The notes beneath the pieces are model-generated. The model made no database searches, was not told the DNA's origin, and saw nothing but the letters and a program-made list of their open reading frames with translations. The translations under genes were made by a program, and so were the position numbers. A DNA stretch of 64,000 nt from Candidatus Taylorbacteria bacterium RIFCSPLOWO2_12_FULL_43_20 (GTDB lineage: Bacteria; Patescibacteriota; Minisyncoccia; Phycocordibacterales; HO2-43-120): positions 31-64,030 of the forward strand of contig MHSK01000017.1 in NCBI GenBank assembly GCA_001821295.1, written 5' to 3'. Within the stretch, counting starts at the first letter, position 1. Every line of letters starts with the position of its first letter. Positions 2,697 through 63,466 of this stretch are shown here, piece after piece.

Positions 2697-2766
2697 CTGT
2701 GGAATAACAGGGACAGCCATCATTCTTTTGCCTGCGGTTTACTTGGAGTTTTTGCAACCTAATCTT

Positions 2767-3744
2767 ATGAAGAAAATAATATTTAGTTTGGTAATCATTG
2801 GCTTTTGGATTGTTTCTTATGGCGCCGTTAATTTCGCAAATGCTTCTAATATGATTGAAGTTTGTAGACTTAATGGCCAGGTGGTTAAAATCACCGATGA
2901 TTATGTTTTTCTTGAAATAAAAAAAGCGTCATATGATGATCCTTTATCATTGGGTGGAGAATATTTTGAAGAATGTAAGAATATAATGAGAAGTGGAGCT
3001 TTGTATCGTTTTTCCACACGAATAAATGAATCCGGCAATTCGTTCTTTAGAGGGGATTTTCGCAATAGTTCTGTCGGTCAATCTATCGTAATTACAAAAG
3101 ATATTGGGAATGCCATGGGTCCTGAAGGAGAGGTCAACTGGGAACAGTGGGTATTGAGGAGAATCGGAAATGTGGAGGGAATCAGATATATAGAACTTGA
3201 AAAAGATACTGGTTCAGAAATCTCAGCAGAACCGGTTTATACGAATGATCCTTTAGTTAAAAATATTTTAAGTGATTCTCTAGTTGAAAACCGCACATAC
3301 ACCATTGCAAAACTGAACAAAAATACCTCCATAGCCCCGAGAAAGTTTTTCACGGAGGCGTATGTTTCGTATATTTACATATGCCCACCGTGTGGCGGAG
3401 AAGCATTATGTATGCCGTGTCTCGACAATTCCTTTATCATTCTTTCGGAAGACTTTGGTTTTAAATATTCACCGGGAAGTGCTTTAGACAAGGAAATATT
3501 AGTTTACACTAAATCTCTTGATTCTGAAAAGCTTGTGGAAGACCAAAAATATCGTTTTGAAGTTTCAATTCAAAATACTAGCAACACAAATGTTCCCCAA
3601 AACGAATTCACACTGATTTCGGTGAAAAATATTGACGGTAGTGTTGTTGCCCCTGAAACTACAGCTCCGCCAATTACCGATCAACCACCAAAGAAATCTT
3701 TCTTTGGTCGCATCTGGAACTGGTTTGCGAGATTGTTTGAGTAA
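2767..3744 (+). CDS. hypothetical secreted protein (signal peptide MKKIIFSLVIIGFWIVSYGAVNFANA)
   Basis: The track ORF is 2680..3744. An internal Met at 2767 gives a canonical signal peptide and avoids overlap with the preceding gene. It contains a Cys cluster (CPPCGGEALCMPC). No recognised domain. Confidence 0.5.
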   Translation: MKKIIFSLVIIGFWIVSYGAVNFANASNMIEVCRLNGQVVKITDDYVFLEIKKASYDDPLSLGGEYFEECKNIMRSGALYRFSTRINESGNSFFRGDFRNSSVGQSIVITKDIGNAMGPEGEVNWEQWVLRRIGNVEGIRYIELEKDTGSEISAEPVYTNDPLVKNILSDSLVENRTYTIAKLNKNTSIAPRKFFTEAYVSYIYICPPCGGEALCMPCLDNSFIILSEDFGFKYSPGSALDKEILVYTKSLDSEKLVEDQKYRFEVSIQNTSNTNVPQNEFTLISVKNIDGSVVAPETTAPPITDQPPKKSFFGRIWNWFARLFE

Positions 3745-7406: not shown

Positions 7407-9290
7407 ATGGAAAAAAATTATATAAGTAGAGAGAGAAGCTCAGGGAACGCTGATAGAAACCGCGCCCCGAGACGAGGACGGCCTGCCCAAAAACGAAGTT
7501 CGGTGTTTGGAGCGGGTGCGGGCATGAGAAAGGACGGAATGAGCGCAGATAGAAAGTATCCGCGACCCCGCTCGAACATGCGGCATAACGATGATGACAT
7601 CATTCCTCCCGCCGGCGATGCCATAAGAATCGTGCCGCTTGGCGGCGTGGAAGAGGTGGGTAAAAACATGACCGTCGTTGAGTATAAGGACGACATTATC
7701 ATCCTTGACGCTGGGTTCCAGTTTAAGGAGGAGGCCACGCCGGGGATAGACTATATATTGCCCAACACCAAATACTTGGAGGAACGGAAGCATAAAATAA
7801 AAGCACTCATAATCACACACGGCCACTTGGATCACGTGGGCGGCATTCCATACATTATGGATAGAATAGGAAACCCTCCAATATTCACCAGAAACCTTAC
7901 GTCAATAATGATCCGTAAAAGACAGACGGAGTTCCCTCACCTCCCCGAACTGAATTTGAAAGTGGTTGAAAAGAAGGACAGAATAAAAATCGGCAATTTG
8001 TACGTGAGGTTTTTCTCGGTTACTCATACTATTCCCGACTCTATGGGTGTCATTATAGAAACGCCTTACGGCAATATAGTCAATCCGGGTGATTTCAAAT
8101 TGGATCACGTTGAAGGAGTGCCGACCGAAGAAGAGGCGGAGGAATACGGTATTTTTGAAAAGGAAAAAACGCTCTTTTTCATGACTGACTCCACCAATGT
8201 GGAAAACCCCGGCTTTTCCACGCCGGAAAGAATCGTCCACAAAAATCTGGACGATATTATCAAGAACATCAAAGGCCGCTTGATAATCGGTACCTTCGCT
8301 TCTCAACTGGAACGAATGATAAAAATTATAGAAATCGCTGAAAAATACAACAAAAAAATCGTCGTTGAGGGAAGGAGTATGAAGAATAACATTGAGATCG
8401 CCATCCAAGCCGGAATATTGAAGACAAAGAAAGATACGATCATCGGCTCTGAGCGCGCGGAGGAATTTCCACCTGATAGAATTATCGTTCTCGCCACGGG
8501 AGCGCAAGGAGAAGAATTTGCCGCGCTTATGAGAATTTCAACGCAGGGTCATAAACACATCAAATTTACCAAGAGAGACACGGTCCTCTTGTCGTCATCA
8601 ATTATTCCAGGCAATGAAAAAACAGTTCAAAAACTTAAAGACAATATTTCAAGGCAGGGCGCTAAGATAATTCACTACAGAACATCTGACGTTTACATAC
8701 ACTCCACCGGTCACGGCAACCGAGGCGAGATAGAATGGCTGCATAAAAAAGTCCGGCCGAAATTCTTCATGCCCATCCACGGCAATCATTATATGCTCCG
8801 GCTTCACGCCGAATTGGCGACTCATCTAGGCATGCCCGAACAGAATATAATCGTGCCGGATAACGGAACAATTGTGGAAATTAGGGACAAGGGTGAAAAA
8901 ATGATCCGCCTGGACGTCAAAGCGCCTTCCGGAATAGTTATGGTGGACGGCTTCGCGATCGGAGACATACAAGAAGTGGTTATTCGCGATCGACAAATGC
9001 TCGCGCAAGACGGCATGTTTGTAATTGTAGCGACAATTGACGCTTCCACAGGCCGTCTGAAGAAGTCTCCTGATCTAATATCAAGAGGTTTTGTGTATTT
9101 GAGAGAATCCCAAGAATTGCTGCGACAAGCCAGATTCGTCATAAAAAAAACAGTGGAAGAATCGACGGAGGGTCTGAACCCGATAAATTTTGATTACGTG
9201 AAATCAAACTTAACAGATGCTGTCAGTAAATTTTTGTTTCAGAAAACCGCAAAACGTCCGATTGTAATACCGGTGCTTTTAGCAGTGTAA
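7407..9290 (+). CDS. rnj: ribonuclease J (metallo-beta-lactamase/beta-CASP family)
   Basis: MBL motif HGHLDHVGG, beta-CASP and RNase J C-terminal region, Arg-rich N-terminal extension. The track ORF 7218..9290 starts at GTG inside the MITE; the first ATG after the MITE is at 7407. Confidence 0.8.
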   Translation: MEKNYISRERSSGNADRNRAPRRGRPAQKRSSVFGAGAGMRKDGMSADRKYPRPRSNMRHNDDDIIPPAGDAIRIVPLGGVEEVGKNMTVVEYKDDIIILDAGFQFKEEATPGIDYILPNTKYLEERKHKIKALIITHGHLDHVGGIPYIMDRIGNPPIFTRNLTSIMIRKRQTEFPHLPELNLKVVEKKDRIKIGNLYVRFFSVTHTIPDSMGVIIETPYGNIVNPGDFKLDHVEGVPTEEEAEEYGIFEKEKTLFFMTDSTNVENPGFSTPERIVHKNLDDIIKNIKGRLIIGTFASQLERMIKIIEIAEKYNKKIVVEGRSMKNNIEIAIQAGILKTKKDTIIGSERAEEFPPDRIIVLATGAQGEEFAALMRISTQGHKHIKFTKRDTVLLSSSIIPGNEKTVQKLKDNISRQGAKIIHYRTSDVYIHSTGHGNRGEIEWLHKKVRPKFFMPIHGNHYMLRLHAELATHLGMPEQNIIVPDNGTIVEIRDKGEKMIRLDVKAPSGIVMVDGFAIGDIQEVVIRDRQMLAQDGMFVIVATIDASTGRLKKSPDLISRGFVYLRESQELLRQARFVIKKTVEESTEGLNPINFDYVKSNLTDAVSKFLFQKTAKRPIVIPVLLAV

Positions 9291-12424: not shown

Positions 12425-12530
12425 TATTTATTTCGGCTAGCGAGGAGCGTGTGAATGATTCATATCATTCACGACGTCCGAGCGAAGACGAAACAAAGGT
12501 TCAATATCTCGGTAACTTCGTCCCGATGAA
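12425..12530. repeat. palindromic repeat family 6 (inverted copy of the tandem units at 33590-33800)
   Basis: cggctagcgaggagcgtgtgaatgattcatatcattcacgacgtccgagcgaagacgaaacaaaggttc is the reverse complement of the unit upstream of ftsZ. Confidence 0.7.
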
Positions 12531-12533
12531 GCA

Positions 12534-12908
12534 TTATTTCTTTTTTGGGGAAGATTTTTCAGCGGCGCTTATGCTCTTCTTTATGTTTTTCCACTGATTT
12601 TTAAGCTCATTCACAAACACGGCTATTTCTTCCGGATCCGCCTGTTTTAATTTCTTGTACTTGTCAGACACTTCATGCACTATCTTGTTGTACAAATTTT
12701 CATTAACTTCTTTTAAGTTTTCAATACGGTCCAGAACATCCGCTTTCGCTCTTAATGACCAGCTTCTGATTTTCTTTCTTTTTTTCTTTCCGCCTTCCGT
12801 GCCATAAAGCAAATAAGCTCCAGCAGCAGCGACCACCGCGATAGCGGTAACACTCCCGGCTATAATCTTCTTCTTTTTATTTGAATTATTGTTGTTATTT
12901 TTTGCCAT
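12534..12908 (-). CDS. hypothetical Lys-rich single-pass membrane protein
   Basis: 124 aa with one TM helix (AGSVTAIAVVAAAGAYLLY) and K/N/E-rich low-complexity flanks. Support is weak. Confidence 0.35.
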   Translation of the reverse strand: MAKNNNNNSNKKKKIIAGSVTAIAVVAAAGAYLLYGTEGGKKKRKKIRSWSLRAKADVLDRIENLKEVNENLYNKIVHEVSDKYKKLKQADPEEIAVFVNELKNQWKNIKKSISAAEKSSPKKK

Positions 12909-15279: not shown

Positions 15280-15423
15280 GTAACTGCTCACAAGACCGAG
15301 TGGTGTCATTCCCGCGAAGGCGGGAATCTAGGCCATATTTTGATCTGGATTCCCGTTTTCACGGGAATGACAGAAGAAAAGAAGGCTGTGGTGTGGCCAT
15401 TACTCGGTCTTGTGAGGAGTTAC
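15280..15423. mobile_element. MITE-A, full copy (TIR GTAACTSCTCACAAGACCGAGT; 8-bp TSD CGAGAAAA)
   Basis: TIRs flank two inverted gtcattcccgcgaa(a/g)gcgggaat hairpins. The flanking 8-mers cgagaaaa at 15272-15279 and 15424-15431 are identical. Spurious track ORFs 15210..15497 and 15256..15438 are translations of this element. Confidence 0.75.
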
Positions 15424-17467: not shown

Positions 17468-17615
17468 ATAGGACTTACGCGTTTCGTCATAATTTAAAAC
17501 ATTTCCCATCTATCATTCCCACTTTCTTCTGTCATTCCCGCGAAAGCGGGAATCCAGTGTATGCAGATAAAAACCTGGATTCCCGCTTTCGCGGGAATGA
17601 CACCACTCGGGGTTG
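17468..17615. mobile_element. chimeric MITE-like element (family-1 left TIR, double GTCATTCCCGCGAAAGCGGGAAT hairpin core, MITE-A-like right end)
   Basis: ataggacttacgcg...tgtcattcccgcgaaagcgggaatccag..ctggattcccgctttcgcgggaatgacaccactcgggg. Confidence 0.55.
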
Positions 17616-20394: not shown

Positions 20395-20455
20395 CCGTTC
20401 CCATCTGTCATTCCCGCGAAAGCGGGAATGACAGGGAGCGCGGGAATGACATCAT
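20395..20455. repeat. double-hairpin repeat fragment (GTCATTCCCGCGAAAGCGGGAATGACA x2)
   Basis: tgtcattcccgcgaaagcgggaatgacagggagcgcgggaatgacatc, lying between pilin paralogs 6 and 7. Confidence 0.6.
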
Positions 20456-22204: not shown

Positions 22205-22330
22205 ATAGGACTTACGTGTTTGATGTCATTCCCGCGAATGCGGGAATCCAGAGTATGCAGATAGATCCTAGATTCCCGCTTTCGCGGGAATGACAGAAGA
22301 AAGCGGGAATGACATCAAACGCGTAAGTAC
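22205..22330. mobile_element. MITE-like element with GTACTTACGCGTTTGATGTCATTCCCGC TIRs and a double-hairpin core
   Basis: ataggacttacgtgtttgatgtcattcccgcgaatgcgggaatccag..tagattcccgctttcgcgggaatgacag..gggaatgacatcaaacgcgtaagtact. Confidence 0.65.
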
Positions 22331-26673: not shown

Positions 26674-26790
26674 GTATCTACTCACAAACCCGAGTGATGT
26701 CATTCCCGTAAAAACAGGAATCCAGCAAGTATTTTGATCTGGATTCCAGCCTGCGCGAGAATGACGCCACTCAAACTTGTGAGTAAATAC
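26674..26790. mobile_element. MITE-A variant copy (TIR GTATCTACTCACAAACCCGAGTG / CACTCAAACTTGTGAGTAAATAC)
   Basis: Degenerate hairpins gtcattcccgtaaaaacaggaatccag..ctggattccagcctgcgcgagaatgac. No clean TSD. Confidence 0.5.
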
Positions 26791-33589: not shown

Positions 33590-33800
33590 ACCATCGGGGC
33601 TAGCCCGGAGATATTGAACCTTTGTTTCGTCTTCGCTCGGACGTCGTGAATGATATGAATCATTCACACGCTCCTCGCTAGCCGAAATAAAGGTTCCTCG
33701 GGACGAAGTTACCGAGATATTGAACCTTTGTTTCGTCTTCGCTCGGACGTCGTGAATGATAAGAATCATTCACACGCTCCTCGCTAGCCGAAATAAACGT
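33590..33800 (+). repeat. tandem duplication (2 x ~105 bp) of palindromic repeat family 6 upstream of ftsZ
   Basis: The unit ...accgagatattgaacctttgtttcgtcttcgctcggacgtcgtgaatgatatgaatcattcacacgctcctcgctagccgaaataaaggttc occurs twice head-to-tail. An inverted third copy lies at 12425-12530. Confidence 0.75.
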
Positions 33801-33827
33801 TATTTAGTTATTACAAATATAAAAATG

Positions 33828-36350: not shown

Positions 36351-38477
36351 ATGAACATTATAAGTAATAAATCGGAAAAAAGTTTAAGTAAACGATTAAC
36401 GGTAGTAGTGCTCGGTCTCGCGCTTATAGCATCCGGTTTTGTTGTTCCAGCGAACACTGAAGCTCAAAGTGCTACAAGCGTTCTTGTACAATTTAACCGA
36501 GATTTGACCATGGGCAGTACGGGCACTGACGTAGCCGCCTTACAGACAATCCTGATCGAAAAAGGTTTTCTTAATATTCCTCCAGGTGTGGCGAAGGGAT
36601 ATTTCGGACCTCTTACCAGAAGCGCGCTAGCGAGGTACCAGGCCTCTGTAGGCATTATGCCGTCAGTAGGATATTTCGGACCGATTACCAAAGCGCACTT
36701 TAACTCTATGGCGGGAGTTACTCCCCAGGTCCCAGGATGTCCTCCGGGAGCAATATTCAATTTCTTGACAGGCGCGCGATGCGACGCTGTTCAAGTTCCG
36801 GGTTGCCCGCCGGGAGCGATATTCAACTTCCTGACGGGTGTAAGATGCGACTTGGCAAGTCCGTCCCCTTCCCCTTCGCCAACGCCTGATGGTGATGGTG
36901 ATGATGATGATGAGTTAAGTGGCGGTGCGGGATCAATATCCAGCTATAAACTTATCTCTGCCCTAAACAACGAAAGAGTCGGGGAAGATGAAAAAGATGT
37001 AAATATCGCCGGCTTAGAGATTGAAGCATCCCAAGGATCAGATATTGAAATTAGCGCGATACGACTCGTATTTGATGGGGGCACAGCAACAAGCGATTTT
37101 GACAGATATGCGGATGACGTTTCAATCTGGCTTGACGGTGAAGAAGTGGCTAGAGTAGATGCCAGTGAATTTGACGACGACAATGACTGGAGCTCTACCG
37201 TGACATTAGACAGAGGAGCAATTATCCGTAGAGGCGATAAAGGAGAAGTCATTGTGGCAATTTCAGGCATCAGGAATCTAGACTCGGCAGATGAAGGAGA
37301 CACCTGGACGGTAGATTTCAGAAGTGTGAGATTCAGAGACGCTCAAGGAGCAACCATCAGTGAAGATCCGGGTACCGCAGTAAGAACATTGTCTTTTGAG
37401 TCGTTCGCGGCGGCGCGTAACGCGGAGCTAAGAATCAGAGCCGATGATGATAGTATTAATCAAGAAAGAGTGATTGACGTGCACGCGACAGACGACACGG
37501 ACAACGTAGCCATAACATCCTTTACTCTTGAGGCAAGAGGAAATTCTGACTTAGAGATCACAAAATTCGGAGTGAACGTTGATGTTACAGGTGCGGCTCA
37601 CGTAGATGATGCTATCTCTGCAATATACCTTTGGATAGACGGTGAAAGAGTGGCTACAGGAGTCGCGTTTGACGATGCCGACGGGGTAAATGTGGGACAG
37701 GATGAAGATTACCTATTTGACGACATTGACTTCATCATAGAAGCCGGCGATACGGTTAACGCTGAAATAAGAGTGGACTTTAATTCAACAGCCGGCGATC
37801 TTGATGAAGGCGATACTATTATGGTAACTCTTGGGGAGACCGAAACGGACCAGGCAAATCTGGTAGACGTGGAGGATGAGTCGGGTACGCAACTTCAAGA
37901 TGCCGATATAAGCGGACAAGTTACCGCGGGACCGCATTCACTGTTTGCCGCCGGTATAAATGTTACGTTTGTAAGCTCAAACGCGACAACAGACGGAGCG
38001 TCCGCGGGAACGGCAACCGGAGATGATACGGGAATCTATGAAATTGTCTTTGACGTAACATCATTCGGTGACGATGTCTTCATTGACGGAGACGTAATTG
38101 CTTCCACCACCGCAAATGCCATAGTAGCCGGAGCGGACGGTATAATCTGGGGAACAACCACAAATTCCAGCGCTACGACGACATTTGACAGCATAGTATC
38201 CTTTGCGATTCTTGAAGCGGAAGGGTTTGAAGGATCCAGTAGTTCAGCTCCCGACGTGACAACAACCGGCGCTCTATCTTACGGAGTTCCGGAGGGAGAA
38301 ACCCGCAGATTCAAACTCAAGATAAATCTCGGTCCTGTTACGGGAGACGTCCAAGCGGGCATAAGGTTGCGTGGCATCAGCTGGGACACAGACAGCGGTG
38401 ATACTCATGACAATCTATACAACTTTAATCTTGGACGATTCAGGACAGATACAATATTCTTGAATCAACAAGATTAA
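36351..38477 (+). CDS. large secreted acidic surface protein with peptidoglycan-binding (PG_binding_1-like) domain and tandem PGCPPGAIFNFLTGxRCD repeats
   Basis: Signal peptide, then GSTGTDVAALQTILIEKGF...GYFGPLTRSALARYQ (PGBD-like). Two 63-bp tandem units at 36727-36852 encode VPGCPPGAIFNFLTG(A/V)RCD. An SPSPSPSPTPDGDGDDDDE linker precedes an approximately 500-aa D/E/T/G-rich domain. Confidence 0.6.
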   Translation: MNIISNKSEKSLSKRLTVVVLGLALIASGFVVPANTEAQSATSVLVQFNRDLTMGSTGTDVAALQTILIEKGFLNIPPGVAKGYFGPLTRSALARYQASVGIMPSVGYFGPITKAHFNSMAGVTPQVPGCPPGAIFNFLTGARCDAVQVPGCPPGAIFNFLTGVRCDLASPSPSPSPTPDGDGDDDDELSGGAGSISSYKLISALNNERVGEDEKDVNIAGLEIEASQGSDIEISAIRLVFDGGTATSDFDRYADDVSIWLDGEEVARVDASEFDDDNDWSSTVTLDRGAIIRRGDKGEVIVAISGIRNLDSADEGDTWTVDFRSVRFRDAQGATISEDPGTAVRTLSFESFAAARNAELRIRADDDSINQERVIDVHATDDTDNVAITSFTLEARGNSDLEITKFGVNVDVTGAAHVDDAISAIYLWIDGERVATGVAFDDADGVNVGQDEDYLFDDIDFIIEAGDTVNAEIRVDFNSTAGDLDEGDTIMVTLGETETDQANLVDVEDESGTQLQDADISGQVTAGPHSLFAAGINVTFVSSNATTDGASAGTATGDDTGIYEIVFDVTSFGDDVFIDGDVIASTTANAIVAGADGIIWGTTTNSSATTTFDSIVSFAILEAEGFEGSSSSAPDVTTTGALSYGVPEGETRRFKLKINLGPVTGDVQAGIRLRGISWDTDSGDTHDNLYNFNLGRFRTDTIFLNQQD

Positions 38478-38521
38478 ACGATCAGCTAAGGCAAAAAAGA
38501 ACAGCAAGATAGAAAAACACA

Positions 38522-38556
38522 AAGAACCCCCTCAAGGGGGTTCTTTGTGTTTTTCT
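38522..38556 (+). terminator. rho-independent terminator (agaaccccctcaagggggttct + T-run)
   Basis: 9-bp G/C-rich stem followed by ttgtgtttttc, 45 bp after the stop of the 36351..38477 gene. Confidence 0.75.
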
Positions 38557-38756
38557 ATTCTCAGTTAACTTTAATAACTGTGTCGCAAAACATTACACCC
38601 CGCAGTCCCGTCCCTATTCAAACTGTGAAAAGCAAGACCTCCGCCCAACTGACAAAAAAAACAGCGCGTTTGCGCCGTTTGTAAATTTTAAGAGCGGCAC
38701 CACAGACCGTTCCCCATTCGTGTGCGCTTTTCGTTAAGCGGTATCTACTATGATCG

Positions 38757-39401
38757 CTACCTCTCAACGAACATACGTCCAATCCCCCTCCTGACACGAT
38801 TATCGGATGCATATTCCAAAATACACCGTCTTGCATTTCTATATTCAGACGATTGCTGGGATGATAGCGTTCGGCCAAATTCTTCTTCTGCCAACACTAC
38901 GGATTGGATATTGTAAAATTTGCACCAATAGTATACCCACCGGCAAGTAAGGGATATATCCCATCCCGACACAAAATAGACAACATCAGGCCTGAGCCGT
39001 GCTAGTATATTTTGGTAAAAATGCCTCAGAACAGGCATGCAACGAGGACGGTCATGCCGTTTCGTCAATGATTCCTCGTAGCTTCTTATCCACTGAGCGA
39101 ACTCAGCCAGCGGCACCACAGATTCATTGCGTTCCAGCAGTCTATCCGTAAAATGCTTGGCAGACGGTAATTTCAAATCATAATTGGTATATTCGGCTTC
39201 ACTTACTCCCATGACCATGCATAAAGGTCTTCCGACTCGCTTTGCCACTATTTCTGCTATCTTGTACAACTGTCCCGGTTGTTTGGCCCGCTTCAGCATA
39301 ATTCTCTCTTGCTCCGTCCAATTTTGCTTGTGCATAATTAAGCGTGTGTATGATGTAAAGATCTGGACAAATACTACTACAGCTTGTTGCCGAGTCAACA
39401 C
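38757..39401 (-). CDS. hypothetical protein (possibly a degraded or foreign gene)
   Basis: 214-aa ORF with no recognisable domain, in a compositionally atypical stretch (38.56-39.41 kb) between a terminator and a MITE. Competing short ORFs lie on the plus strand. Confidence 0.25.
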   Translation of the reverse strand: MLTRQQAVVVFVQIFTSYTRLIMHKQNWTEQERIMLKRAKQPGQLYKIAEIVAKRVGRPLCMVMGVSEAEYTNYDLKLPSAKHFTDRLLERNESVVPLAEFAQWIRSYEESLTKRHDRPRCMPVLRHFYQNILARLRPDVVYFVSGWDISLTCRWVYYWCKFYNIQSVVLAEEEFGRTLSSQQSSEYRNARRCILEYASDNRVRRGIGRMFVER

Positions 39402-39409
39402 ACTTACTT

Positions 39410-39512
39410 GTATCTGCTCACAAGACTGAGTAATCTGCTAACTACAGCCTTCTTTTCTTCTGTCATACCCGCGAAAGCGGGAATGACACCACTCGGCCTT
39501 ATGAGCAGATAC
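39410..39512. mobile_element. MITE-A, short single-hairpin copy (TIR GTATCTGCTCACAAGACTGAGT; 8-bp TSD ACTTACTT)
   Basis: Identical 8-mers acttactt at 39402-39409 and 39513-39520 flank the element. Confidence 0.75.
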
Positions 39513-39720
39513 ACTTACTTCGCGTAAACGAACACACATAAGGATTGCAATCTCCTAACACGCCTACATACGCTCTGTCAAGCACCACCGAGGCTTTGCG
39601 AGGTGAGAAGCGAATACATGGAGCTTCGCAAGACCTTGAGCATTTTGTCTTCAAAATGCGAAAGGTTTACCGCGTCTGTAAGACGGCAGGCGGGGCGTTC
39701 ATCCGTTCCGTTTCCGTTCG

Positions 39721-40065
39721 TGTAAAATTCGAGCGAATGATATAATTAGTTCACCAAGAGAAACATTGGTCGGAAGTAAGAAAGCGGAGCGATTTTGCGG
39801 AAGCCGTTAAGTTCTGTATTGGTGAACTAATTATATCATTCGCTCGAATTTTACACGAGAAAAAAGGATAGCCAACGCGCCAAGCGCGTGGTAACTTGAA
39901 ACTTAATCGTACGCTCCGATTAAACGCCACCGGCCGCCGAGTACGGCGGCTTTGCCTCGCAGAAAATTTTCCTTGCATTTCTGATTTTGCGCGCGCCCGT
40001 CTTTTTTAAAATATGGAAAGGAAATTTTCTGCTCGGCTTCCGCGAAACGTGGTGGCGGCTACATA
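39721..40065. repeat. left boundary repeat of tRNA-Glu-associated cassette (direct-repeat unit A + inverted unit B')
   Basis: 39721-39830 (35-bp IR + 68-bp core, ending TGGTGA) is a direct copy of 42006-42112. 39826-40065 is the reverse complement of 41803-42040. Spurious track ORF 39751..39978 lies inside. Confidence 0.8.
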
Positions 40066-40128
40066 CAATATAGAAAATAGAAAACCCGTGACCATATTTC
40101 AGATCACGGGCGAGATTTTTCTCTCGGA

Positions 40129-40710
40129 TTAGACTTGCAGCTCACCAGTCCAAGGACTCTTGCGCGAAATTACGGCAAACAAGGTACCCGGCGGAAATCC
40201 TTTCTCCTTTGACCCAGGAATGCGCTCGATCTCATGCCTCTGTAATTTCGCCCTCCCATCACCGTCGAGGACGATAGCTAGTGTCCAACCAGGTTTGTCG
40301 CTAGCTTTCGAATGACCTCCAATGGCGACTATTGGGTACTGACAGTGACATTGTTCGTGTACCTTTGTATGCCATTTAGCTGCCCATTGCGCGTATAGTG
40401 CGTTTATCCAAGCATCTGACGCGGGCTTTCCTAGGCCAATGAGTCGGTCATGAGCTTCCTCTTCCTCAACCCAGGAGTTTTGAGAAAAACACAGGAATTG
40501 CACATACCCCATTTCTTTATTACTAACACCGACCCACAATCCCGTTTCCGTGTAGGTTTGCACCTTGTCGATAACTGAGCAGAGTAACTCTTTGGAGTGA
40601 GGTTGAACCAGCGCTTTCCAGAAGCGCTCGTTGGCTCCGTGTTTCCTGGCCAACATTATTAATTGGTGAATGAGACCGATCTCTTTACCGAATTCAGACT
40701 CGCCATTCAT
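40129..40710 (-). CDS. hypothetical protein (cassette cargo; Trp/His/Cys-rich, higher GC than surroundings)
   Basis: 193-aa ORF, divergently oriented from the toxin-antitoxin pair, with no recognisable domain and a codon composition visibly more GC-rich than flanking genes. Confidence 0.5.
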   Translation of the reverse strand: MNGESEFGKEIGLIHQLIMLARKHGANERFWKALVQPHSKELLCSVIDKVQTYTETGLWVGVSNKEMGYVQFLCFSQNSWVEEEEAHDRLIGLGKPASDAWINALYAQWAAKWHTKVHEQCHCQYPIVAIGGHSKASDKPGWTLAIVLDGDGRAKLQRHEIERIPGSKEKGFPPGTLFAVISRKSPWTGELQV

Positions 40711-40905
40711 GGCATGTCCTTTCTCGTTTGTGCCTCGTCGTTTAAGACATGGCGTTTAACTTTTTGCTAGATGACTTGGCCAAAGGTTTCGTCATAGCAG
40801 AGAATTACCAAAGATTTAGCAACTCTCTACTATGACAAAACAGTAAGTGGTTTCAAGGTGCTTTTACTGCCGACAGTGTACACTATATGACTATATATGT
40901 CAAGC

Positions 40906-40935
40906 TTGAATTTTTTCATCGTTTAACCGTTATAT
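40906..40935 (+). promoter_or_regulatory. candidate sigma70-like promoter (TTGAAT-18 nt-TTATAT) and AT-rich palindrome upstream of the antitoxin gene
   Basis: ttgaat tttttcatcgtttaaccg ttatat lies 16 nt before ATG 40952. An upstream imperfect palindrome cactatatgactatatatgtca is a possible operator. Confidence 0.3.
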
Positions 40936-40951
40936 GGTAATATAAACAACA

Positions 40952-41449
40952 ATGGCTAGGATAAACCAAAAAAAATACAAAAACGCCGTTCTTTTCTTTG
41001 CAAGAAAAATTCAGAACGGCACTTTGGGTAAGCTCAAAATGATGAAGCTTCTCTATTTTCTTGATTTTGATTTCTTTGAAAAATTCGGCCGTTCAATCAC
41101 CGGCGATGAATATCTCCGATTTGAAAATGGACCCGTGCCACATATGGGAGAAAAAATCCTCAAGGAGATGAACGGAAAAGAAATCAAAATCACCAAGCGA
41201 AAAGTTGGCGAGGGTTACAATGACCAAATGCATATTGAAGCGTTGGCTGATTTTGACGTAAATGTTTTTGAGAAAGAGGAGCTGCTCATGCTTGAAGAAA
41301 TTGCGAGCAAGTGGGAGAAATTTACTGGATCAGAAATGAAAAATGCCAGTCATGGCGAAGCCCCGTGGATTGCCACGAAACCGGATGATGTAATTGATTA
41401 TAATCTCGCGCTCTATCGGAACAAATACGGAGAGATGGCGAAAGTATGA
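40952..41449 (+). CDS. Panacea-domain (DUF4065, GepA/SocA-like) antitoxin-type protein
   Basis: LGKLKMMKLLYFLDFDFFEKFGRSITGDEYLRFENGPVPHMGEKILKEMNG matches the DUF4065 core pattern (L.KL.KLLYY.....L...G.PLF.E...AW.HGPV). Confidence 0.6.
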   Translation: MARINQKKYKNAVLFFARKIQNGTLGKLKMMKLLYFLDFDFFEKFGRSITGDEYLRFENGPVPHMGEKILKEMNGKEIKITKRKVGEGYNDQMHIEALADFDVNVFEKEELLMLEEIASKWEKFTGSEMKNASHGEAPWIATKPDDVIDYNLALYRNKYGEMAKV

Positions 41450-41459
41450 TTAACTCGCT

Positions 41460-41801
41460 ATGGAACTTTCTCGGCATGACGATCTTGAAAAAGATCTACG
41501 AAATCTAAAACGCTTTCCAACTCCACGAGAATCTTTAGAGGCATGGGAACGCCTCTTTAGTCTGAAAGGACTCCGAGAAACTCCGGGTGTTGACCCATTC
41601 CGAGGATTTGGTAATGCGAAAATTTACAAAGGGCGAGTCGTGCCGTTGAAAGAGAACATGGGAAAGTCAAAAGGTTATCGGGTCATCGTCCAAATAATTT
41701 CCCATGATTGTTTTAAGATTCTCGTATTTTCTCGTCACGGAATTTATCACGACGAGCAAGATTTGATTGATATTGTCAAAGCTCGTTTGATTATTTGTTA
41801 G
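41460..41801 (+). CDS. HigB-like / RelE-ParE superfamily toxin
   Basis: 113 aa. GKSKGYRVIVQIISHDCFKILVFSRHGIYHDE matches the HigB/RelE core (GK..GGYRIIY......I.LL.I..K.E). Starts 11 bp after the Panacea gene. Confidence 0.6.
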   Translation: MELSRHDDLEKDLRNLKRFPTPRESLEAWERLFSLKGLRETPGVDPFRGFGNAKIYKGRVVPLKENMGKSKGYRVIVQIISHDCFKILVFSRHGIYHDEQDLIDIVKARLIIC

Positions 41802-41802
41802 C

Positions 41803-42112
41803 CTCCACCGCGCTTTCGCGCGGAAGCCGAGCAGAAAATTTCCTTTCCATATTTTAAAAAAGACGGGCGCGCGCAAAATCAGAAATGCAAGGAAAATTTT
41901 CTGCGAGGCAAAGCCGCCGTACTCGGCGGCCGGTGGCGTTTAATCGGAGCGTACGATTAAGTTTCAAGTTACCACGCGCTTGGCGCGTTGGCTATCCTTT
42001 TTTCTCGTGTAAAATTCGAGCGAATGATATGATTAGTTCACCAAGAGAAACATTGGTCGGAAGTAAGAAAGCGGAGCGATTTTGCGGAAGCCGTTAAGTT
42101 CTGTATTGGTGA
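41803..42112. repeat. right boundary repeat of cassette (inverted unit B + direct-repeat unit A ending in the tRNA-Glu 3' tail)
   Basis: B begins at the toxin stop codon. Unit A ends tggtga at 42107-42112, which is the reverse complement of the tRNA CCA end plus discriminator. Spurious track ORF 41885..42097 lies inside. Confidence 0.8.
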
Positions 42113-42181
42113 CCCTACCGGGAATCGAACCCGGATTACCGGCTTGAAAAGCCGATGTCCTAACCGTTAGACGATAGGGCC
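42107..42181 (-). tRNA. tRNA-Glu (anticodon UUC), CCA encoded
   Basis: The reverse complement GGCCCTATCGTCTAACGGTTAGGACATCGGCTTTTCAAGCCGGTAATCCGGGTTCGATTCCCGGTAGGGTCACCA folds as a cloverleaf with anticodon loop TTTTCAA. Confidence 0.85.
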
Positions 42182-42292
42182 TTGCGCAGAACGCGGAATT
42201 TCTAATTTCTAATTTTTAGAAAATTGAAAAGGTAAAAAAATACTAGCATTTATTGGAAAATTGGCAAAAAAATCTTTTTCATCCACTGACTC

Positions 42293-42505
42293 TTATTTTT
42301 TTGCATCCGGTCCAAATTTTCCTTCAAACTGATCTGCGTATTTTTCTTGTTTCCCCTCATGGCTGTCTATCCAGCCGCCGCTTTTGTCATCCGGCTTTTT
42401 ACCTTGCGCTTCCATGTCATATTTCCGTGTATTTTTTATCTCTCCCTCCCCCGCATCCACGGCGCGGCGCATCATTTCAAAAGGATTTTCTTTTTCTATT
42501 GACAT
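42293..42505 (-). CDS. hypothetical small acidic Lys/Gly/Asp-rich protein
   Basis: 70 aa, a low-complexity hydrophilic protein reminiscent of small stress proteins, with no clear RBS. The plus-strand alternative 42253..42528 looks non-coding. Confidence 0.25.
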   Translation of the reverse strand: MSIEKENPFEMMRRAVDAGEGEIKNTRKYDMEAQGKKPDDKSGGWIDSHEGKQEKYADQFEGKFGPDAKK

Positions 42506-42730
42506 GTATTGATCATACTATTTTTTGAAGAAAACGCAAAGAATGCTAGGATTGTATATACAACAACCCAAGGGTTGCCTTCCCCACCCACTACGCTCCT
42601 CATTCGCCAAAGGATACGGAAGGACAAGCACCTACTTCGCTAAAGCTACGAAGGTCAAGGAAAGCTACGCGGGTCAAGAAGAGCTACGGCAACCCGATGG
42701 GTGCCTGCGCGTAAAGCTACAGCAACCCAA

Positions 42731-42818
42731 GGGAGGAGTGCCAGAGTGGTCGAATGGGCCGCACTCGAAATGCGGTGTGCTCGTAAGGGTACCGTGAGTT
42801 CGAATCTCACCTCCTCCG
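42731..42818 (+). tRNA. tRNA-Ser (anticodon CGA), long variable arm, no encoded CCA
   Basis: GGAGGAGTGCCAGAGTGGTCGAATGGGCCGCACTCGAAATGCGGTGTGCTCGTAAGGGTACCGTGAGTTCGAATCTCACCTCCTCCG, anticodon loop CTCGAAA. Confidence 0.85.
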
Positions 42819-42994
42819 TAATTCAGGATTTTGCAAGTGGAAAGACGATGCCTCGCGGCGCGAAACGCGCCGCTCGGCTAGGATGTGAAAGGGGTTTTTT
42901 GAGTAAAAACGAAAAGGATTTATCAATGAAGGGCAAAAGAAATTTTTTCATCAATTTTATAAAATCGAAATAATTAACCGTCAATTTTAATATT

Positions 42995-54194: not shown

Positions 54195-54338
54195 GTAACT
54201 CCTCACAAGACCGAGTAATGGCCACACCACAGCCTTCTTTTCTTCTGTCATTCCCGTGAAAACGGGAATCCAGATCAAAATATGGCCTAGATTCCCGCCT
54301 TCGCGGGAATGACACCACTCGGTCTTGTGAGCAGTTAC
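54195..54338. mobile_element. MITE-A, full copy in inverse orientation (8-bp TSD AAACAAAA)
   Basis: TIRs gtaactcctcacaagaccgagt / actcggtcttgtgagcagttac. Identical 8-mers aaacaaaa at 54187-54194 and 54339-54346. Spurious track ORFs 54108..54356 and 54118..54318 translate it. Confidence 0.8.
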
Positions 54339-55904: not shown

Positions 55905-55985
55905 TTTTATGTCATTCCCGCGAAAGCGGGAATCCAGGGTTTTATCTGCATACTCTGGATTCCCGCTTTCGCGGGAATGACAGAT
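55905..55985. repeat. double-hairpin MITE-B element (TGTCATTCCCGCGAAAGCGGGAATCCAG - spacer - CTGGATTCCCGCTTTCGCGGGAATGACA)
   Basis: Perfect inverted pair. The spacer ggttttatctgcatactc is the reverse complement of the spacer in the 17.55-kb copy. Confidence 0.75.
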
Positions 55986-56490: not shown

Positions 56491-56909
56491 GTTTATATAA
56501 AAGCTATTAATGACAACAGAACGTTTTAACTTCGTTTCCGCTTTTCGTTAAGCGATATCTACTATAAACGGCTAAACTCCACCCATTTTGGAGAAGTCAA
56601 TAAATATACCCCACAGCAGAACTGTGGGGAATTCTGCGTAATTATAAAACAATAACAGCTTAATACTATATTTATAAACCGGAAGAGTCAATGCAACCAC
56701 AGGGTTACAACCCTACGGTAAGCACCAAGCACCAAATAACAATACCAATATACGAATTAATACGAATATACAACTCCGACGCTTCGGTCGGAGCCCCGAC
56801 CGAAGCGTCGGGGATGGATACGAATCACCCCATCCCTCGTACCCCTACGCTCGAAGCGAGCTTCGGCGGAGCAAGGGAGGGGAAGAGGAAGTCGTGTAAA
56901 ATTTTAGCC

Positions 56910-57276: not shown

Positions 57277-58968
57277 TTATTCAAACAGGTCAGGGCGGTA
57301 TATTGAAGCCCAGTCAAAAAATCTGCGAGCGACCGCCGAGGCGCCTACCGTATTGGCTCTCGGCCCTTTTTCCATAATAACGACAAATGCGTATTTCGGC
57401 TCATCATAAGGAAAAAAACCGGTAACCCACGAATTGACATACTGTTTTGCCGCGCCCAACTCAGCCGTTCCCGTCTTTCCCGCGAACTTCACATATGGAA
57501 CATTCAGAGCGGACGCGGTGCCAATGACGACAGACAACCGCATTCCATCTTTCGCCACTTCAAAATAACTTTTATCCAGATCAATTTGGCCGGATTCACC
57601 CGACGTTACGCCTTTTAAAATCTCGGGATAAACAATCCTTCCGTTATTGGCAACGGCGGCGGTAGCCACAAGCGCCTGCATGGGAGTAACAAGAAAACCG
57701 TACTGTCCAATAGATGTGTGATACGTATTCCCCACCGTCCACTCCTCTCCCTCAAAATTTTCCGCTTTCCACTTTGGGTTGGGAATGGTTCCTGCCATTC
57801 CGCCGAAATACGGAACGGGCAGTTCCCTGCCGAAACCGAACAGGCGCATGTATTTATCAATCAAGGTAATGCCGAGACCTTTTTGTTCTTCATACCCCCC
57901 GCCAATTTCGTAGAAATACACGTCGGAAGACACGGCTATCGCCTCTCTCATATCAACCGCCCCATGAGCTTTCCAGTCTCTAAACACAGTGCTTTTGGTC
58001 TCGTCGTAGATATTGGGCAAGGTTATAGATCCGGTGCTTACGATCTTCTTTGAAGGGTCTATGACCCCCTCCGCAAGCGCGGCTATGGCGATAAAGGGCT
58101 TAATGATGGAACCAGGTGTGTATAGCCCGCGGCTAAGCCGATCCAAAAAGGGATTATTGCCGTCATTAATAAAACTTTCTATTGTTTTCTTGTCCTTACC
58201 TTGCGACAAGACATCGGAAGAATATTCAGGATAACTGGTCATAGCGACAACTTCCCCGTTGGTTATGTCCATAATGGCGGCGGCCCCGCCTTTGAATCCT
58301 ATTTCCAGAGCCAATTTCTCAATCTCCACAAAAAAGGCCTCACTCAACTCTGAATCTATGGAGAGGTGGAGTGTTTTGCCGGAGACCGGAGGATCAATAA
58401 TATTCTCGGAGACAACTCGTCCCACCGCGTCTGTCTCAATGATTTTCAAGCCATTTTTGCCTGAAAGCTCCGCGTTGAAATATTTCTCAACCCCATCCTT
58501 GCCGTCATATTGATCGCTGTAATAAAACCCGGCGCTGTCCTTGCCTGGATATTTCACATAGCCCAATAATAAGGAAACACCAGCCGCGTCCGTATATTGT
58601 CGGATGGAAAACTGCTCACCTTCCGGATGACTGGCATTCCACGCCATAAGTTTGTCCCGCCTGTCATAAACCACCCCCCTTTCCGCGAAAATATAACTGT
58701 GGCGCAACCTGTTATTCTCAGACAAAGACCTTAGAATTTCACCCTTGTTTATTTGAAGATAAACCAGTCTAGATAGAAAAACCAGGGCTATCAATAAGAA
58801 AACCGCGCCGATAAAAACATGCATGCGAGTGGAAATAGGCCGCTCTATTCTTCCTTCAAATTGGTAAGTGTCAAACTCGGGTAAATTTCTAGAGTCCAAA
58901 AAAATCTCATCCGGATGAATTTCGGTTTCTTGTTTTCTGAAATGCTTTTTTATTTTTTTCCAAAACAT
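57277..58968 (-). CDS. mrdA: peptidoglycan D,D-transpeptidase MrdA (class B PBP2, elongasome)
   Basis: N-terminal TM helix, SxxK (GSIIKP), KTGTAE. Lies downstream of mreBCD on the same strand. Confidence 0.75.
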   Translation of the reverse strand: MFWKKIKKHFRKQETEIHPDEIFLDSRNLPEFDTYQFEGRIERPISTRMHVFIGAVFLLIALVFLSRLVYLQINKGEILRSLSENNRLRHSYIFAERGVVYDRRDKLMAWNASHPEGEQFSIRQYTDAAGVSLLLGYVKYPGKDSAGFYYSDQYDGKDGVEKYFNAELSGKNGLKIIETDAVGRVVSENIIDPPVSGKTLHLSIDSELSEAFFVEIEKLALEIGFKGGAAAIMDITNGEVVAMTSYPEYSSDVLSQGKDKKTIESFINDGNNPFLDRLSRGLYTPGSIIKPFIAIAALAEGVIDPSKKIVSTGSITLPNIYDETKSTVFRDWKAHGAVDMREAIAVSSDVYFYEIGGGYEEQKGLGITLIDKYMRLFGFGRELPVPYFGGMAGTIPNPKWKAENFEGEEWTVGNTYHTSIGQYGFLVTPMQALVATAAVANNGRIVYPEILKGVTSGESGQIDLDKSYFEVAKDGMRLSVVIGTASALNVPYVKFAGKTGTAELGAAKQYVNSWVTGFFPYDEPKYAFVVIMEKGPRANTVGASAVARRFFDWASIYRPDLFE

Positions 58969-59059
58969 AAATACTAATATACGACTCCGACGCTTCGGTC
59001 GGAGCCCCGACCGAAGCGTCGAGGATGAATACGAATAGGCGCAATGCTAATATATTGTG

Positions 59060-61760: not shown

Positions 61761-61905
61761 TTCTCTTATTCGTATTCATCCCCGACGCTTCGGTCGGGAC
61801 TCCGACCGAAGCGTCGGAGTAGTACCATTCGTACTGTGTCCCTCCGAAGTTTCTTAGCGAAGGGGGATATTGGTATCGATCATTAGCATCGCACTAGAGT
61901 AGTTC

Positions 61906-63242: not shown

Positions 63243-63440
63243 CGTCCCCCCTCTTCCCCTCTTTAGAGGGGAAGTGCCGAGTCTACGAGGCGATGGGGTG
63301 TCTTCTCTTCTTCATCTTCCTCTTTTTCGAATTTGTAATTTGGTACTTAGTGCTTATCTAAAGATGGGGTGTTCCCCATTCGTATCTATCCCCGACGCTT
63401 CGGTCGGGGCTCCGACCGAAGCGTCGGAGTCGTTAAGCGG
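63243..63440. repeat. cluster of family-3 partial copy (63243-63300) and family-2 palindrome (63388-63433)
   Basis: cccctcttcccctctttagaggggaagtgccgag... and ccccgacgcttcggtcggggctccgaccgaagcgtcgg. Spurious track ORF 63229..63483 translates them. Confidence 0.65.
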
Positions 63441-63466
63441 TATTGCTATCAAACGCGTATACACCC

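Follow-up and report, generated by a model that had tools for sequence, protein, structure and literature searches.

A recombinase-less cassette with a putative toxin-antitoxin pair at a tRNA-Glu gene of Candidatus Taylorbacteria, and its probable kinship with large serine recombinase units at tRNA 3' ends

How does a short segment of DNA that encodes no recombinase come to lie, framed by long repeats, exactly at the 3' end of a tRNA gene? The question is raised by a 2287-bp cassette beside tRNA-Glu(UUC) in Candidatus Taylorbacteria bacterium RIFCSPLOWO2_12_FULL_43_20 (assembly GCA_001821295.1, contig MHSK01000017.1), of which a stretch of 64,000 nt was analyzed; this whole stretch is referred to below as the window. 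The cassette has the order a'-B-[193-aa gene, PanA, toxin]-B'-a-C, where a and a' are the two orientations of a 40-nt arm, B and B' those of a structured spacer, and C is a 61-nt core. It is considered probable, with appreciable room for doubt, that this is a non-autonomous integrative cassette of the large serine recombinase (LSR) type, which entered the chromosome through a short core shared with the tRNA 3' end. Comparison contigs and loci carry L numbers (L031 is GCA_001822535.1 and L046 is VMES01000075.1). tRNA genes were called with ARAGORN and Rfam, and the cargo was annotated against Pfam, NCBIfam, PADLOC and PDB sequences. The elements that frame the cargo are the following.

39718-39757, plus strand: arm a, left copy (A allele), with the promoter-like TGATATAAT; it ends in TCACCAA (39751-39757, here called T), a mimic of the tRNA 3' end
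39758-39818, plus strand: core C, left copy; its part C48 (39758-39805) corresponds to the first 48 nt of the terminal inverted repeat of the LSR unit described below
about 39803-39818, plus strand: right part of core C, whose last 13-16 nt resemble the start of that inverted repeat
39819-39858, minus strand: arm a', 100% complementary to 39718-39757; its first 7 nt, TTGGTGA (39819-39825), are the proposed attL core
39859-40061, no strand: segment B, a structured spacer with several hairpins, perfect as an inverted repeat to 40044 and imperfect to 40061
41799-42004, no strand: segment B', which is B in inverted orientation; its RNA folds into consecutive hairpins beyond the toxin stop codon, the last being ACGCGCTTGGCGCGT followed by T6
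42005-42044, plus strand: arm a, right copy (G allele); G at 42031 weakens the TATAAT-like box to TATGAT
42045-42105, plus strand: core C, right copy, identical to the left copy
42106-42112, no strand: TTGGTGA, the proposed attR core, also the TC-A-CCA 3' end of tRNA-Glu
42107-42181, minus strand: tRNA-Glu(UUC), the integration target (ARAGORN and Rfam, 65.5 bits)

The direct repeat (39718-39825 and 42005-42112; a-C-TTGGTGA) covers 108 nt, 107 of them identical, and the inverted repeat (39819-40044 and 41819-42044; a'B against B'a) covers 226 nt with 225 identical. The sole mismatch is the same one in both, A at 39744 against G at 42031, and this difference turns the promoter-like TGATATAAT into TGATATGAT beside the tRNA-proximal C. 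The initial annotation had described a repeat-bounded cassette at the 3' end of tRNA-Glu, a left core lying between both arms and an inverted segment beginning at the toxin stop codon. All three descriptions hold, with the borders slightly shifted (arm of 40 nt, core of 61 nt): the left copy is a(40 nt)-C(61 nt)-a'(40 nt) with an arm pair that is perfectly palindromic over 40 bp, and the inverted repeat continues imperfectly, with a 3-nt indel and a few mismatches, to 40061 and 41799, its right inner end starting at the stop codon (41799-41801). Folded as DNA, a-C-a' gives a 40-bp stem (dG -51 kcal/mol, z = -10.6), and the number of core and arm matches expected in shuffles of the window is 0. 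A further feature had been proposed in B, namely a terminator made of GCGCGCGCCCGTC and T6; it was not called by the terminator scan, which found a terminator of the orphan (193-aa) gene instead, and it lies in the loop of a larger hairpin. Rfam, run with gathering thresholds over the whole window and in E-value mode over 39300-42900, returned only tRNAs and no known RNA family over a, B or C. A diverged copy of B (86%) is present in L008, and in another context, L042, the toxin gene is followed by the inner ~75 nt of B' only.

The right copy of the direct repeat ends in TTGGTGA, which is the reverse complement of the TC-A-CCA end of tRNA-Glu plus one base, and a' starts with the same seven bases. 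Among the three tRNA genes of the window, this tRNA-Glu is the only one with an encoded CCA. The cassette thus abuts the CCA end of an intact tRNA gene, the arrangement of a 3'-end tRNA insertion with the tRNA restored. Its GC content (0.442) equals the window mean (0.437). Several independent assemblies, GCA_001820825.1 and contigs from JGI and ENA among them, have the whole structure with 100% identity, and it is hence not a one-off assembly error. As had been reported, there is no recombinase or transposase in the cassette, nor was a homologue of the related LSR found anywhere in the 64-kb window; the element of the window can therefore only be a non-autonomous derivative.

The same aquifer population also contains the locus without the cassette. 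Contigs reached through look-ups with the flanking 70-aa and 192-aa proteins include L021/L028, a 30.9-kb JGI contig from the same Rifle population, which equals the window minus exactly 2287 bp; it aligns to the window in two parts, whose overlap is precisely the 108-nt repeat, and the flanks are 99.97-100% identical. This is the precise empty site of the cassette, of the kind that the initial annotation had proposed to look for, and it establishes a presence/absence polymorphism with exact boundaries. The empty site bears the left (A) allele of arm a. TTGGTGA, directly repeated in the window (39819-39825 and 42106-42112), is present once in L021, and identity spans the whole 108 nt, so that the crossover cannot be placed within it. 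The direct repeat had been read as a classical attachment site that includes the tRNA 3' tail. The tail is indeed included, but the 108 nt as a whole are probably not the attachment site; comparison favors the short core TTGGTGA/TGGTG.

The orientation of the cargo differs between assemblies. The orphan end of the cargo is joined to the tRNA flank through B'-a-C in contigs L013, L007 and L009, and the toxin end in contigs L001, L002, L004, L023 and L041. All left-flank contigs seen have the orientation of the window, without a left junction to inverted cargo, and no invertase is present. That both orientations occur is only suggestive, since a 226-nt inverted repeat is beyond phasing by De Bruijn assemblers and an inverted left junction was not observed.

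The link to a recombinase comes from other genomes. When arm a was searched as an exact 30-nt match with one genome per species, it was found in three further species (L044, L045 and L046), and alignment showed that C48 adjoins the upstream side of LSR genes in L031, L044, L045 and L065. In L031, C48 (one indel and one mismatch relative to the window) is followed by a 70-nt leader, D, and then by a frameshifted LSR gene with Resolvase, Recombinase and Zn-ribbon domains, whose frame enters tRNA-Glu(CUC). The order in L044 is B'-a-C48-D-LSR, and that in L045 is a-[TCACCAA-C48-D-LSR-D'-C48'-TTGGTGA]-tRNA-Glu(UUC)-tRNA-Ser(CGA), with inverted repeats of about 130 nt. In L045/L114 the repeat-framed LSR sits where the window has C, and the neighboring tRNA genes are those of the right flank of the window (syntenic). 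Of the two kinds of recombinase that had been considered as possible partners encoded elsewhere, it is therefore the serine type that stands directly beside a-C (L031, L044, L045), and the earlier suggestion of a non-autonomous mobilizable cassette gains from the fact that relatives with an LSR share a-C. In L046 (reverse of 2984-3027), a 44-nt perfect hairpin, CGACTTCAAAA.TCCCGCTC ACCA GAGCGGGA.TTTTGAAGTCG, lies between a and tRNA-Glu(CUC); its center is a tRNA-end-like CACCA, at the site taken elsewhere by C or the LSR unit.

The C48/D junction was used as a 28-nt query in a metagenome scan, and among the matches listed, to which the counts in this paragraph refer, more than 120 metagenome stretches from many environments contained it. 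A tRNA ending in ...CACCA is abutted, at a fixed distance, by 47 of the 76 non-redundant repeat ends; the tRNAs are of the types Leu, Arg, Ala, Glu, Lys and Tyr. Another 20 of the 76 abut an a-like arm, with a pattern of an A-run, GTTCGMGCAAA, a TATAAT-like box and then the same terminal hexamer, and the other nine adjoin degenerate versions of the tRNA or the arm. The terminal hexamer and the repeat subfamily vary together with the type of tRNA: beside Glu tRNAs the hexamer is TCACCA, beside those for Leu, Arg, Tyr and Lys it is GCACCA, and beside those for Ala and Lys it is CCACCA. The a-like arms co-vary with the unit subfamily, terminal hexamer included. CCA is encoded in 45 of the 47 tRNA genes next to repeats, against 27 of the 67 other tRNA genes of the same loci. 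The initial annotation had held that repeat units A and B found ubiquitously at tRNA genes of this genome without cargo would speak against a cassette. Arm a and core C are indeed very common beside tRNAs of the candidate phyla radiation (CPR, Patescibacteria), but as the ends of mobile elements, by which the idea is refined rather than refuted.

The autonomous unit is about 1.75 kb long and consists of an LSR gene between nearly perfect terminal inverted repeats of 133-144 nt (about 135); in L126 these reach through a and B to a length of 285 nt. Intact LSR open reading frames (ORFs) of 519-538 aa occur at nine loci (L057, L059, L061, L062, L086, L107, L113, L122 and L126). One intact LSR was found to have a Resolvase catalytic domain with the YxRxS motif, a Recombinase domain and a zinc ribbon, and to be distantly related to SPbeta YokA/SprA. 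YokA is the nearest solved relative of the family, the best NCBIfam matches, below threshold, are XisF and CcrA/B/C, and similarity to characterized LSRs is low (E about 1e-6 to 1e-12). The inverted repeats overlap the start codon of the LSR gene, and the right repeat encodes its last 45 or so residues. The reading frames of L062 (253-1845), L122, L126, L061, L113 and others have no stop inside the element and end variably in the flanking tRNA or a'; the C-terminus of the recombinase thus depends on the location of the element. L052 (2687-4640) has an LSR-unit pseudogene with a tRNA-Leu gene at either end; the two tRNA genes converge, and each adjoins one of the inverted repeats, as expected if the second site of an element recombined with a second tRNA and rearranged the chromosome.

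Several ORFs at repeat ends need separate mention. That the partial gene of L008 belongs to a full-length recombinase was considered and rejected, as every one of its homologues (P0001-P0017) is an ORF of about 50-120 aa running into a tRNA gene. These 'hypothetical proteins' (motif WGELWDFTAKTKADFALRSAAYSPRGAVNSEQVSFG; for instance L043 8001-8333 beside tRNA-Leu 8312-8398) are relic or spurious ORFs over repeat ends.

The architecture of the window recurs with other cargo. A B'-a probe within the loci revealed a'-B...B'-a cargo modules adjoining the unit in L054, L055, L100, L050 and L053. In L054, 189-nt perfect inverted repeats, with repeat ends pointing outward on both sides, enclose an ASCH/NUDIX-like gene, two unknown proteins and an XRE regulator; L055 has 178-nt inverted repeats around a kinase-like gene and an XRE gene; and in L053 ABC-transporter cargo is followed by B'-a-mini-unit-tRNA-Leu. 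The distal end of L050 reads chromosomal terminator, then TGGTG-a', that is, a T'-a' junction (T' being the complement of T) beside plain chromosomal DNA. B-like sequence accompanies the a-like arms in L044, L045, L057, L061, L099 and L126. The inverted position of the core relative to B had been taken as a trace of past inversion; this is not required, since the layout that is standard in the family (L126, L061, L099, L091, L045), in which B'-a-[unit] is followed by a'-B at one end and by the tRNA at the other, gives the same opposite orientation. The three cargo genes of the window also occur in L008, where diverged B adjoins them on the orphan side, together with an a' that belongs to another subfamily, a repeat end and an LSR C-terminus. 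L055 (reverse orientation, 2613-3725) also has the gene of another serine recombinase, an unrelated one that shares about 25% identity with the family LSR. The end of this gene coincides exactly with the distal TGGTGG-a' junction of a cassette, and these arms may serve more than one lineage of recombinase.

Miniature units without the LSR lie between a and a' in L099 (87 nt) and L091 (an 86-nt palindrome), and between a and a tRNA in L053 (about 165 nt); all three retain both repeat termini. On alignment, C fits the description of such a miniature, an LSR-deleted copy of the unit: its first 48 nt are clearly those of the parental repeat, but its right end agrees at only about 10 of 16 positions.

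These observations can be joined in one scheme. In the autonomous relatives, a unit of about 1.75 kb, made of the LSR gene and its terminal inverted repeats, takes the position of C. The outermost 6-7 nt of each repeat copy the tRNA 3' end (..CACCA), and the repeat end abuts either a real tRNA or an a arm with the same 6-7 nt. The junction between the a arm and the repeat end would be the attachment site, recombining with the tRNA 3' end inside the shared core (here TCACCAA/TTGGTGA), by which the unit would be set beside the tRNA and its CCA end restored. Cargo flanked by a'-B and B'-a would end up on the side of the unit away from the tRNA, and a second copy of the core would mark the outer end of the element; a circle a'-B-cargo-B'-a-unit would accordingly integrate as flank-core-a'-B-cargo-B'-a-unit-core-tRNA. 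In the window the LSR would have been deleted from the unit, with the 61-nt miniature C remaining, and the 'flank' would itself be the a-C end of an older related remnant (192-aa gene ... a-C), a case of tandem accretion. That the 7-nt core repeat appears as 108 nt would then be due to insertion of the cassette beside this older remnant. Loss and flipping of the cassette could be brought about by an LSR in trans, or by RecA, with the 108-nt direct repeat and the 226-nt inverted repeat as its substrates.

Applied to the window, the scheme reproduces the observed sequence exactly. Recombination of 'a | repeat end' with 'tRNA 3' end | flank' also accounts for the arrangements a...tRNA, a...a', tRNA...tRNA (L052), a'-cargo-a and the distal TGGTG-a'. 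The core T, unlike the flanks of the unit, is directly repeated at the ends of whole cassettes (window and L050), as expected if the cassette integrates together with the unit. What the data show directly is the anatomy, the empty site, the recurring architecture, the link with LSRs and the position next to tRNA ends; where the crossover would lie, in which direction the reaction would run, mobilization in trans and the part played by the toxin-antitoxin pair are what we infer.

A number of points weigh against this explanation. As the 64-kb window holds no LSR, action of an LSR on the cassette in trans would have to be assumed, and the full-length LSR copies of the Glu subfamily that were seen are all pseudogenes (L045/L114 by nonsense mutation, L031/L065 by frameshift). 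Recombination by an LSR is normally between attP and attB, with no long repeats left behind. Where C faces the tRNA and a', only about 10 of 16 nt agree with the canonical start of the repeat, and the arms of the proposed attL and attR are degenerate. The scheme does not account for the roles of the second inverted repeat and of the two inverted 'a|repeat' sites. The cargo of the window cassette occurred in none of the 80 LSR loci examined, and a search around 38460-38780 for the TGGTG-a' that would mark the far end of the presumed older element was negative. The contigs with inverted cargo belong to short-read assemblies, which cannot phase the 226-nt repeat, and lack an inverted left flank. 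Finally, the A allele of the empty site fits site-specific and homologous recombination equally, and a single A/G allele cannot separate the two.

The explanation that best survives beside integration by an LSR is homologous recombination alone, in which ordinary chromosomal genes happen to lie between abundant structured repeats, and RecA deletes them through the 108-nt and flips them through the 226-nt repeat, without any mobile unit and without a site-specific recombinase now at work on the cassette. The window is indeed crowded with repeat families, among them a 144-nt perfect inverted pair 38.7 kb apart; it contains no recombinase; the repeats of the cassette are long and nearly identical, an ideal substrate for RecA; the outer 226 nt of the inverted repeat are homogenized and the inner 17-20 nt diverged, as from gene conversion; and the single allele of the empty site is compatible with it. 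What it does not explain is the origin of the a-C-a'-B...B'-a-C layout, the recurrence of this layout with unrelated cargo beside LSR units in many genomes, the repeat that ends exactly at the CCA of the tRNA, and the cargo of L008 on the unit of a different subfamily. As a full account it is unlikely. RecA would yield the same empty and flipped forms. It is a live alternative, and the chief rival, where the polymorphism seen today is concerned, but not as regards how the architecture arose.

It could also be supposed that only the LSR unit and its miniatures transpose, in the manner of insertion sequences and miniature inverted-repeat transposable elements (MITEs), so that C was inserted twice, independently, next to a arms already in place (a|a' and a|tRNA), the cargo lies outside the element, and the empty site arose through recombination of C with C. 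Such a course is suggested by the MITE-like retention of both repeat termini in the miniatures (L091, L099, L053 and C), by the two identical copies of C, by arms that occur without a unit (L046 and the distal a' of L050), and by the unit of L052 between two convergent tRNA-Leu genes. It is nevertheless improbable, somewhat more so than homologous recombination. The unit itself has no flanking directly repeated dinucleotide in the a...tRNA loci, and its ends are inverted, an arrangement in which a serine crossover would invert and not excise; together, these features make a simple serine transposon unlikely. The co-variation of a-like arms with the unit subfamily and hexamer is unexpected for an independent target, and cargo modules are consistently bounded by a'...a.

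There is very little chance that the repeats, the empty site or the inverted form were produced by collapse of repeats and mis-joins in short-read assembly. Many contigs do break within the repeats, after 40-140 nt of B or 82 nt of the direct repeat, graphs of k = 141 cannot phase the 226-nt inverted repeat, and the empty-site sample also gives a separate 2.1-kb cassette contig (L009). Yet at least four independent assemblies from different pipelines (a metagenome-assembled genome (MAG) at NCBI, JGI and two ENA sets) give the full structure without any difference, the empty-site contig requires k-mers or reads across the left flank, repeat and tRNA and has the left-type allele with otherwise identical flanks, and the same architecture is found in unrelated genomes. 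Least tenable of all is a remnant of a tyrosine-integrase island, an integron-type cassette or a Xer-dependent module (of pdif type, or like integrative mobile elements exploiting Xer), to which the tRNA 3' end as a classical tyrosine-integrase target, the resemblance of inverted-site modules with toxin-antitoxin genes to the pdif modules of Acinetobacter and the superficial likeness of the a-C-a' hairpin to attC sites would point, because neither the Pfam-annotated flanking 20 kb nor any related locus has a tyrosine recombinase, the recombinase physically linked to a-C is a serine recombinase, inspection of a by eye revealed no convincing dif-like 11-6-11 motif or attC R''/R' (RYYYAAC/GTTRRRY), and the direct repeat holds only 6-7 nt of the tRNA rather than a 3' segment of 17-50 nt.

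Integration by an LSR, preferred here for the cassette, may extend to a wider statement, to which we would give an even chance. The units would form a widespread modular family of mobile elements in CPR bacteria, in which the LSR targets tRNA 3' CCA ends, the inverted repeats supply the CCA and encode the LSR C-terminus, promoter-bearing a arms serve as partner sites, a'-B...B'-a cargo is exchangeable and miniatures can be mobilized in trans. Such a family would comprise Glu, Leu/Arg/Tyr/Lys and Ala subfamilies, and its cargo would include toxin-antitoxin, XRE-linked and NUDIX/ASCH modules and an ABC transporter.

The cargo of the window cassette comprises three genes and their signals.

40084-40111, minus strand: intrinsic-terminator-like hairpin of the orphan gene, from the terminator scan
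40129-40710, minus strand: 193-aa cargo gene, function unassigned, without a family match
40711-40951, no strand: AT-rich divergent promoter region of orphan and PanA (GC 0.373), with several sigma-70-like minus-strand matches at 40829-40919
40952-41449, plus strand: PanA-type antitoxin (Panacea/SocA domain) of 165 aa (Pfam PF13274, E = 8.4e-19, 69 bits against a cut-off of 25.7)
41460-41801, plus strand: putative toxin of 113 aa with a RelE/HigB-like predicted fold

The initial annotation had named a Panacea/HigB pair. The antitoxin half stands through PF13274; the HigB half has similarity of predicted fold but not of sequence family. For the 165-aa protein, the NCBIfam SocA equivalog remained far under its cut-off (15.6 against 190 bits), and the protein is thus not SocA itself. 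The toxin gene begins 10 nt downstream of PanA, and its product gave no match in Pfam, NCBIfam, PADLOC or PDB sequences, even at lenient E-values. It has 439 homologues, always of about 110 aa and adjoining PanA in every context examined; one source labels a 68%-identical homologue 'RelE'. The structure was predicted with AlphaFold2 (pLDDT 81.6) and the model compared with PDB folds, of which the four best were HigB chains (6af4, 7awk; probability 0.98-1.0, TM 0.49-0.59, E about 0.01-0.04). 'HigB-like' is therefore a reasonable label for the modeled fold of the 113-aa protein, not a statement of family membership. PanA (Panacea-domain) toxin-antitoxin pairs, PanAT, were reportedly described by Kurata et al. 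in 2022. The present pair resembles them in having a Panacea/SocA protein immediately upstream (10 nt) of a small toxin-like gene and in its conservation elsewhere; it differs in a partner that belongs to no Pfam or NCBIfam family and whose link to HigB/RelE is by predicted fold only.

PanA and the toxin are adjacent and co-conserved in the window, L042, L167 and L169-171, and as these contexts are quite different, the pair is itself a travelling module. In L169 (6394-6760; also L170 and L171), a homologous pair with 80% nucleotide identity ends 55 nt upstream of tRNA-Glu(CUC). Downstream of this tRNA, its 3' end (CAAATCCCGGTGAGG) is repeated once in direct and once in inverted orientation, which has the look of a further small insertion scar at tRNA-Glu. 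Within the cassette, the pair would probably act as an addiction module that stabilizes it.

The 193-aa gene is nearly an ORFan. Its product is the sole member of its own cluster among 5.8 billion clusters, and ten distant homologues were found among 1.8 billion representatives (25-60% identity, mostly 31-39% over about 190-200 aa). PADLOC gave no defense-system match for the cargo or the neighboring 192-aa protein. The possibility that the orphan is a decayed recombinase C-terminus was rejected, as BLASTP against the LSR of L031 gave nothing (E = 1.7). Its GC content had been called visibly higher, but the value of 0.49 is only at the 95th percentile of windows of the same size. The terminator hairpin of the orphan (40077-40119) stands directly upstream of PanA in L167 (5341-5381), a genome without the orphan gene, which suggests an older module of hairpin, PanA and toxin into which the 193-aa gene was inserted or from which it was lost.

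On the left, the cassette is bordered by an older block.

38379-39717, no strand: older block with the 3' end of a 708-aa gene, the 192-aa gene (38757-39335, minus), a REP-like (repetitive extragenic palindromic) palindrome (39459-39488) and a B'-like stretch (about 39548-39717)

From the end of the 708-aa gene through the 192-aa gene and a to C48 (38379-39805), the window is 99.8-99.9% identical to L031 4532-5957, L037 1-1390 and L036 4694-5944; the orthologous gene next to the block has only about 70% nucleotide and 63% amino acid identity. The sharp switch at 38379 is a signature of recent inter-species transfer or recombination. The 192-aa protein had no match in Pfam, NCBIfam or PADLOC. 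The block is probably what remains of an earlier related element, together with its cargo.

Other repeats were noted elsewhere in the window. REP-like palindromic intergenic repeats (GTCATTCCCGCGAAAGCGGGAATGAC and relatives) are present in at least 13 copies, often paired (15302-15331, 17528-17602, 20404-20451, 22222-22295, 26696-26725, 39459-39488, 54244-54314 and 55908-55982), and further intergenic families occur, for example at 56756-56825, 58967-59036, 61762-61831 and 63372-63441. The 144-nt inverted pair (15280-15423 and 54195-54338, 100% complementary) encloses most of the window, including the cassette, and is a potential substrate for a large chromosomal inversion. Tandem repeats of 88 nt (33608-33695 and 33714-33801, 98% identical) lie upstream of ftsZ, with an inverted copy (12427-12540, 96-100%) 21 kb off.

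Elements that depend on LSRs include phages and integrative and conjugative elements (ICEs) with integrases such as phiC31, Bxb1 and SPbeta SprA/YokA, SCCmec with its Ccr proteins, and the transposons Tn4451 (TnpX) and Tn5397 (TndX). The units described here share with them a linked recombinase of full LSR architecture and a small size, some being little more than the recombinase, as in LSR transposons; they differ in their target, the tRNA 3' CCA end, in long, nearly perfect inverted repeats and in an LSR frame without an internal stop. Neither arm a nor segment B was found among IMG/VR viral contigs, and thus nothing points to a phage or satellite.

Integrative and mobilizable elements (IMEs), cis-mobilizable elements (CIMEs) and tandem accretion are known at tRNA attachment sites, an example being ICESt1/CIME in Streptococcus. 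The cassette is similar in its attachment-like repeats, the lack of its own recombinase, the tandem position with a remnant at the same tRNA and the precise empty site, and it would likewise depend on the recombinase of a related element. It differs in that we infer a serine and not a tyrosine recombinase, in having no conjugation or mobilization genes, in its size of 2.3 kb and in the palindromic a/a' and inverted B. The pdif modules of Acinetobacter plasmids, bounded by inversely oriented 28-bp XerC/D sites and often with toxin-antitoxin cargo, are also short, recombinase-less and found either way round between inverse sites; here, by contrast, the sites are a|repeat junctions beside tRNA genes and linked to an LSR. 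An integron gene cassette is not indicated, the arms being perfect 40-bp repeats without attC core motifs on inspection, and no tyrosine recombinase being present in the Pfam-annotated flanking 20 kb. With MITEs, C and the miniatures of L091, L099 and L053 have in common that they are internal-deletion derivatives of 61-165 nt that keep both parental termini; the parent, however, has a gene for a serine recombinase and not for a DDE transposase, target-site duplication is lacking, and the right end of C is only weakly repeat-like.

The closest concept in streamlined genomes is that of the tycheposons of Prochlorococcus, of which 910 of 937 use a tyrosine recombinase, and which have 40-nt tRNA fragments as attachment sites and often carry replication genes (bioRxiv 10.1101/2020.12.28.424599). 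Both are small cargo elements at specific tRNAs of streamlined genomes, with partial tRNA repeats, tandem arrays or remnants and presence/absence within populations. The present elements are distinguished by the LSR, a 6-7-nt tRNA-end core, long inverted repeats and CPR hosts. According to a systematic survey, no targeting of tRNA genes by serine integrases was known, and the survey found only 14 of 297 candidates (PMC7192596). Literature searches returned no description of an LSR family at tRNA 3' ends in CPR/Patescibacteria, and the family is apparently undescribed; its unusual part is the family of the recombinase.

The locus itself is of more modest interest, as a recombinase-less toxin-antitoxin cassette that is polymorphic in a natural population; within the family it is a decayed member of ordinary size. 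The wider reading, if true, would overturn the working rule that tyrosine and not serine integrases are found at tRNA genes (PMC7192596). It would also provide LSRs with short, conserved and predictable targets for genome engineering, together with a native integration tool for CPR bacteria, and would account for many assembly breaks and spurious 'hypothetical proteins' beside tRNAs in CPR MAGs. These bacteria have tiny genomes, are mostly uncultured and nearly intractable genetically, and their mobile elements are poorly known. For them, the family would represent a route by which streamlined genomes shuffle toxin-antitoxin and defense-like genes, a parallel to the tycheposons built on a serine recombinase.

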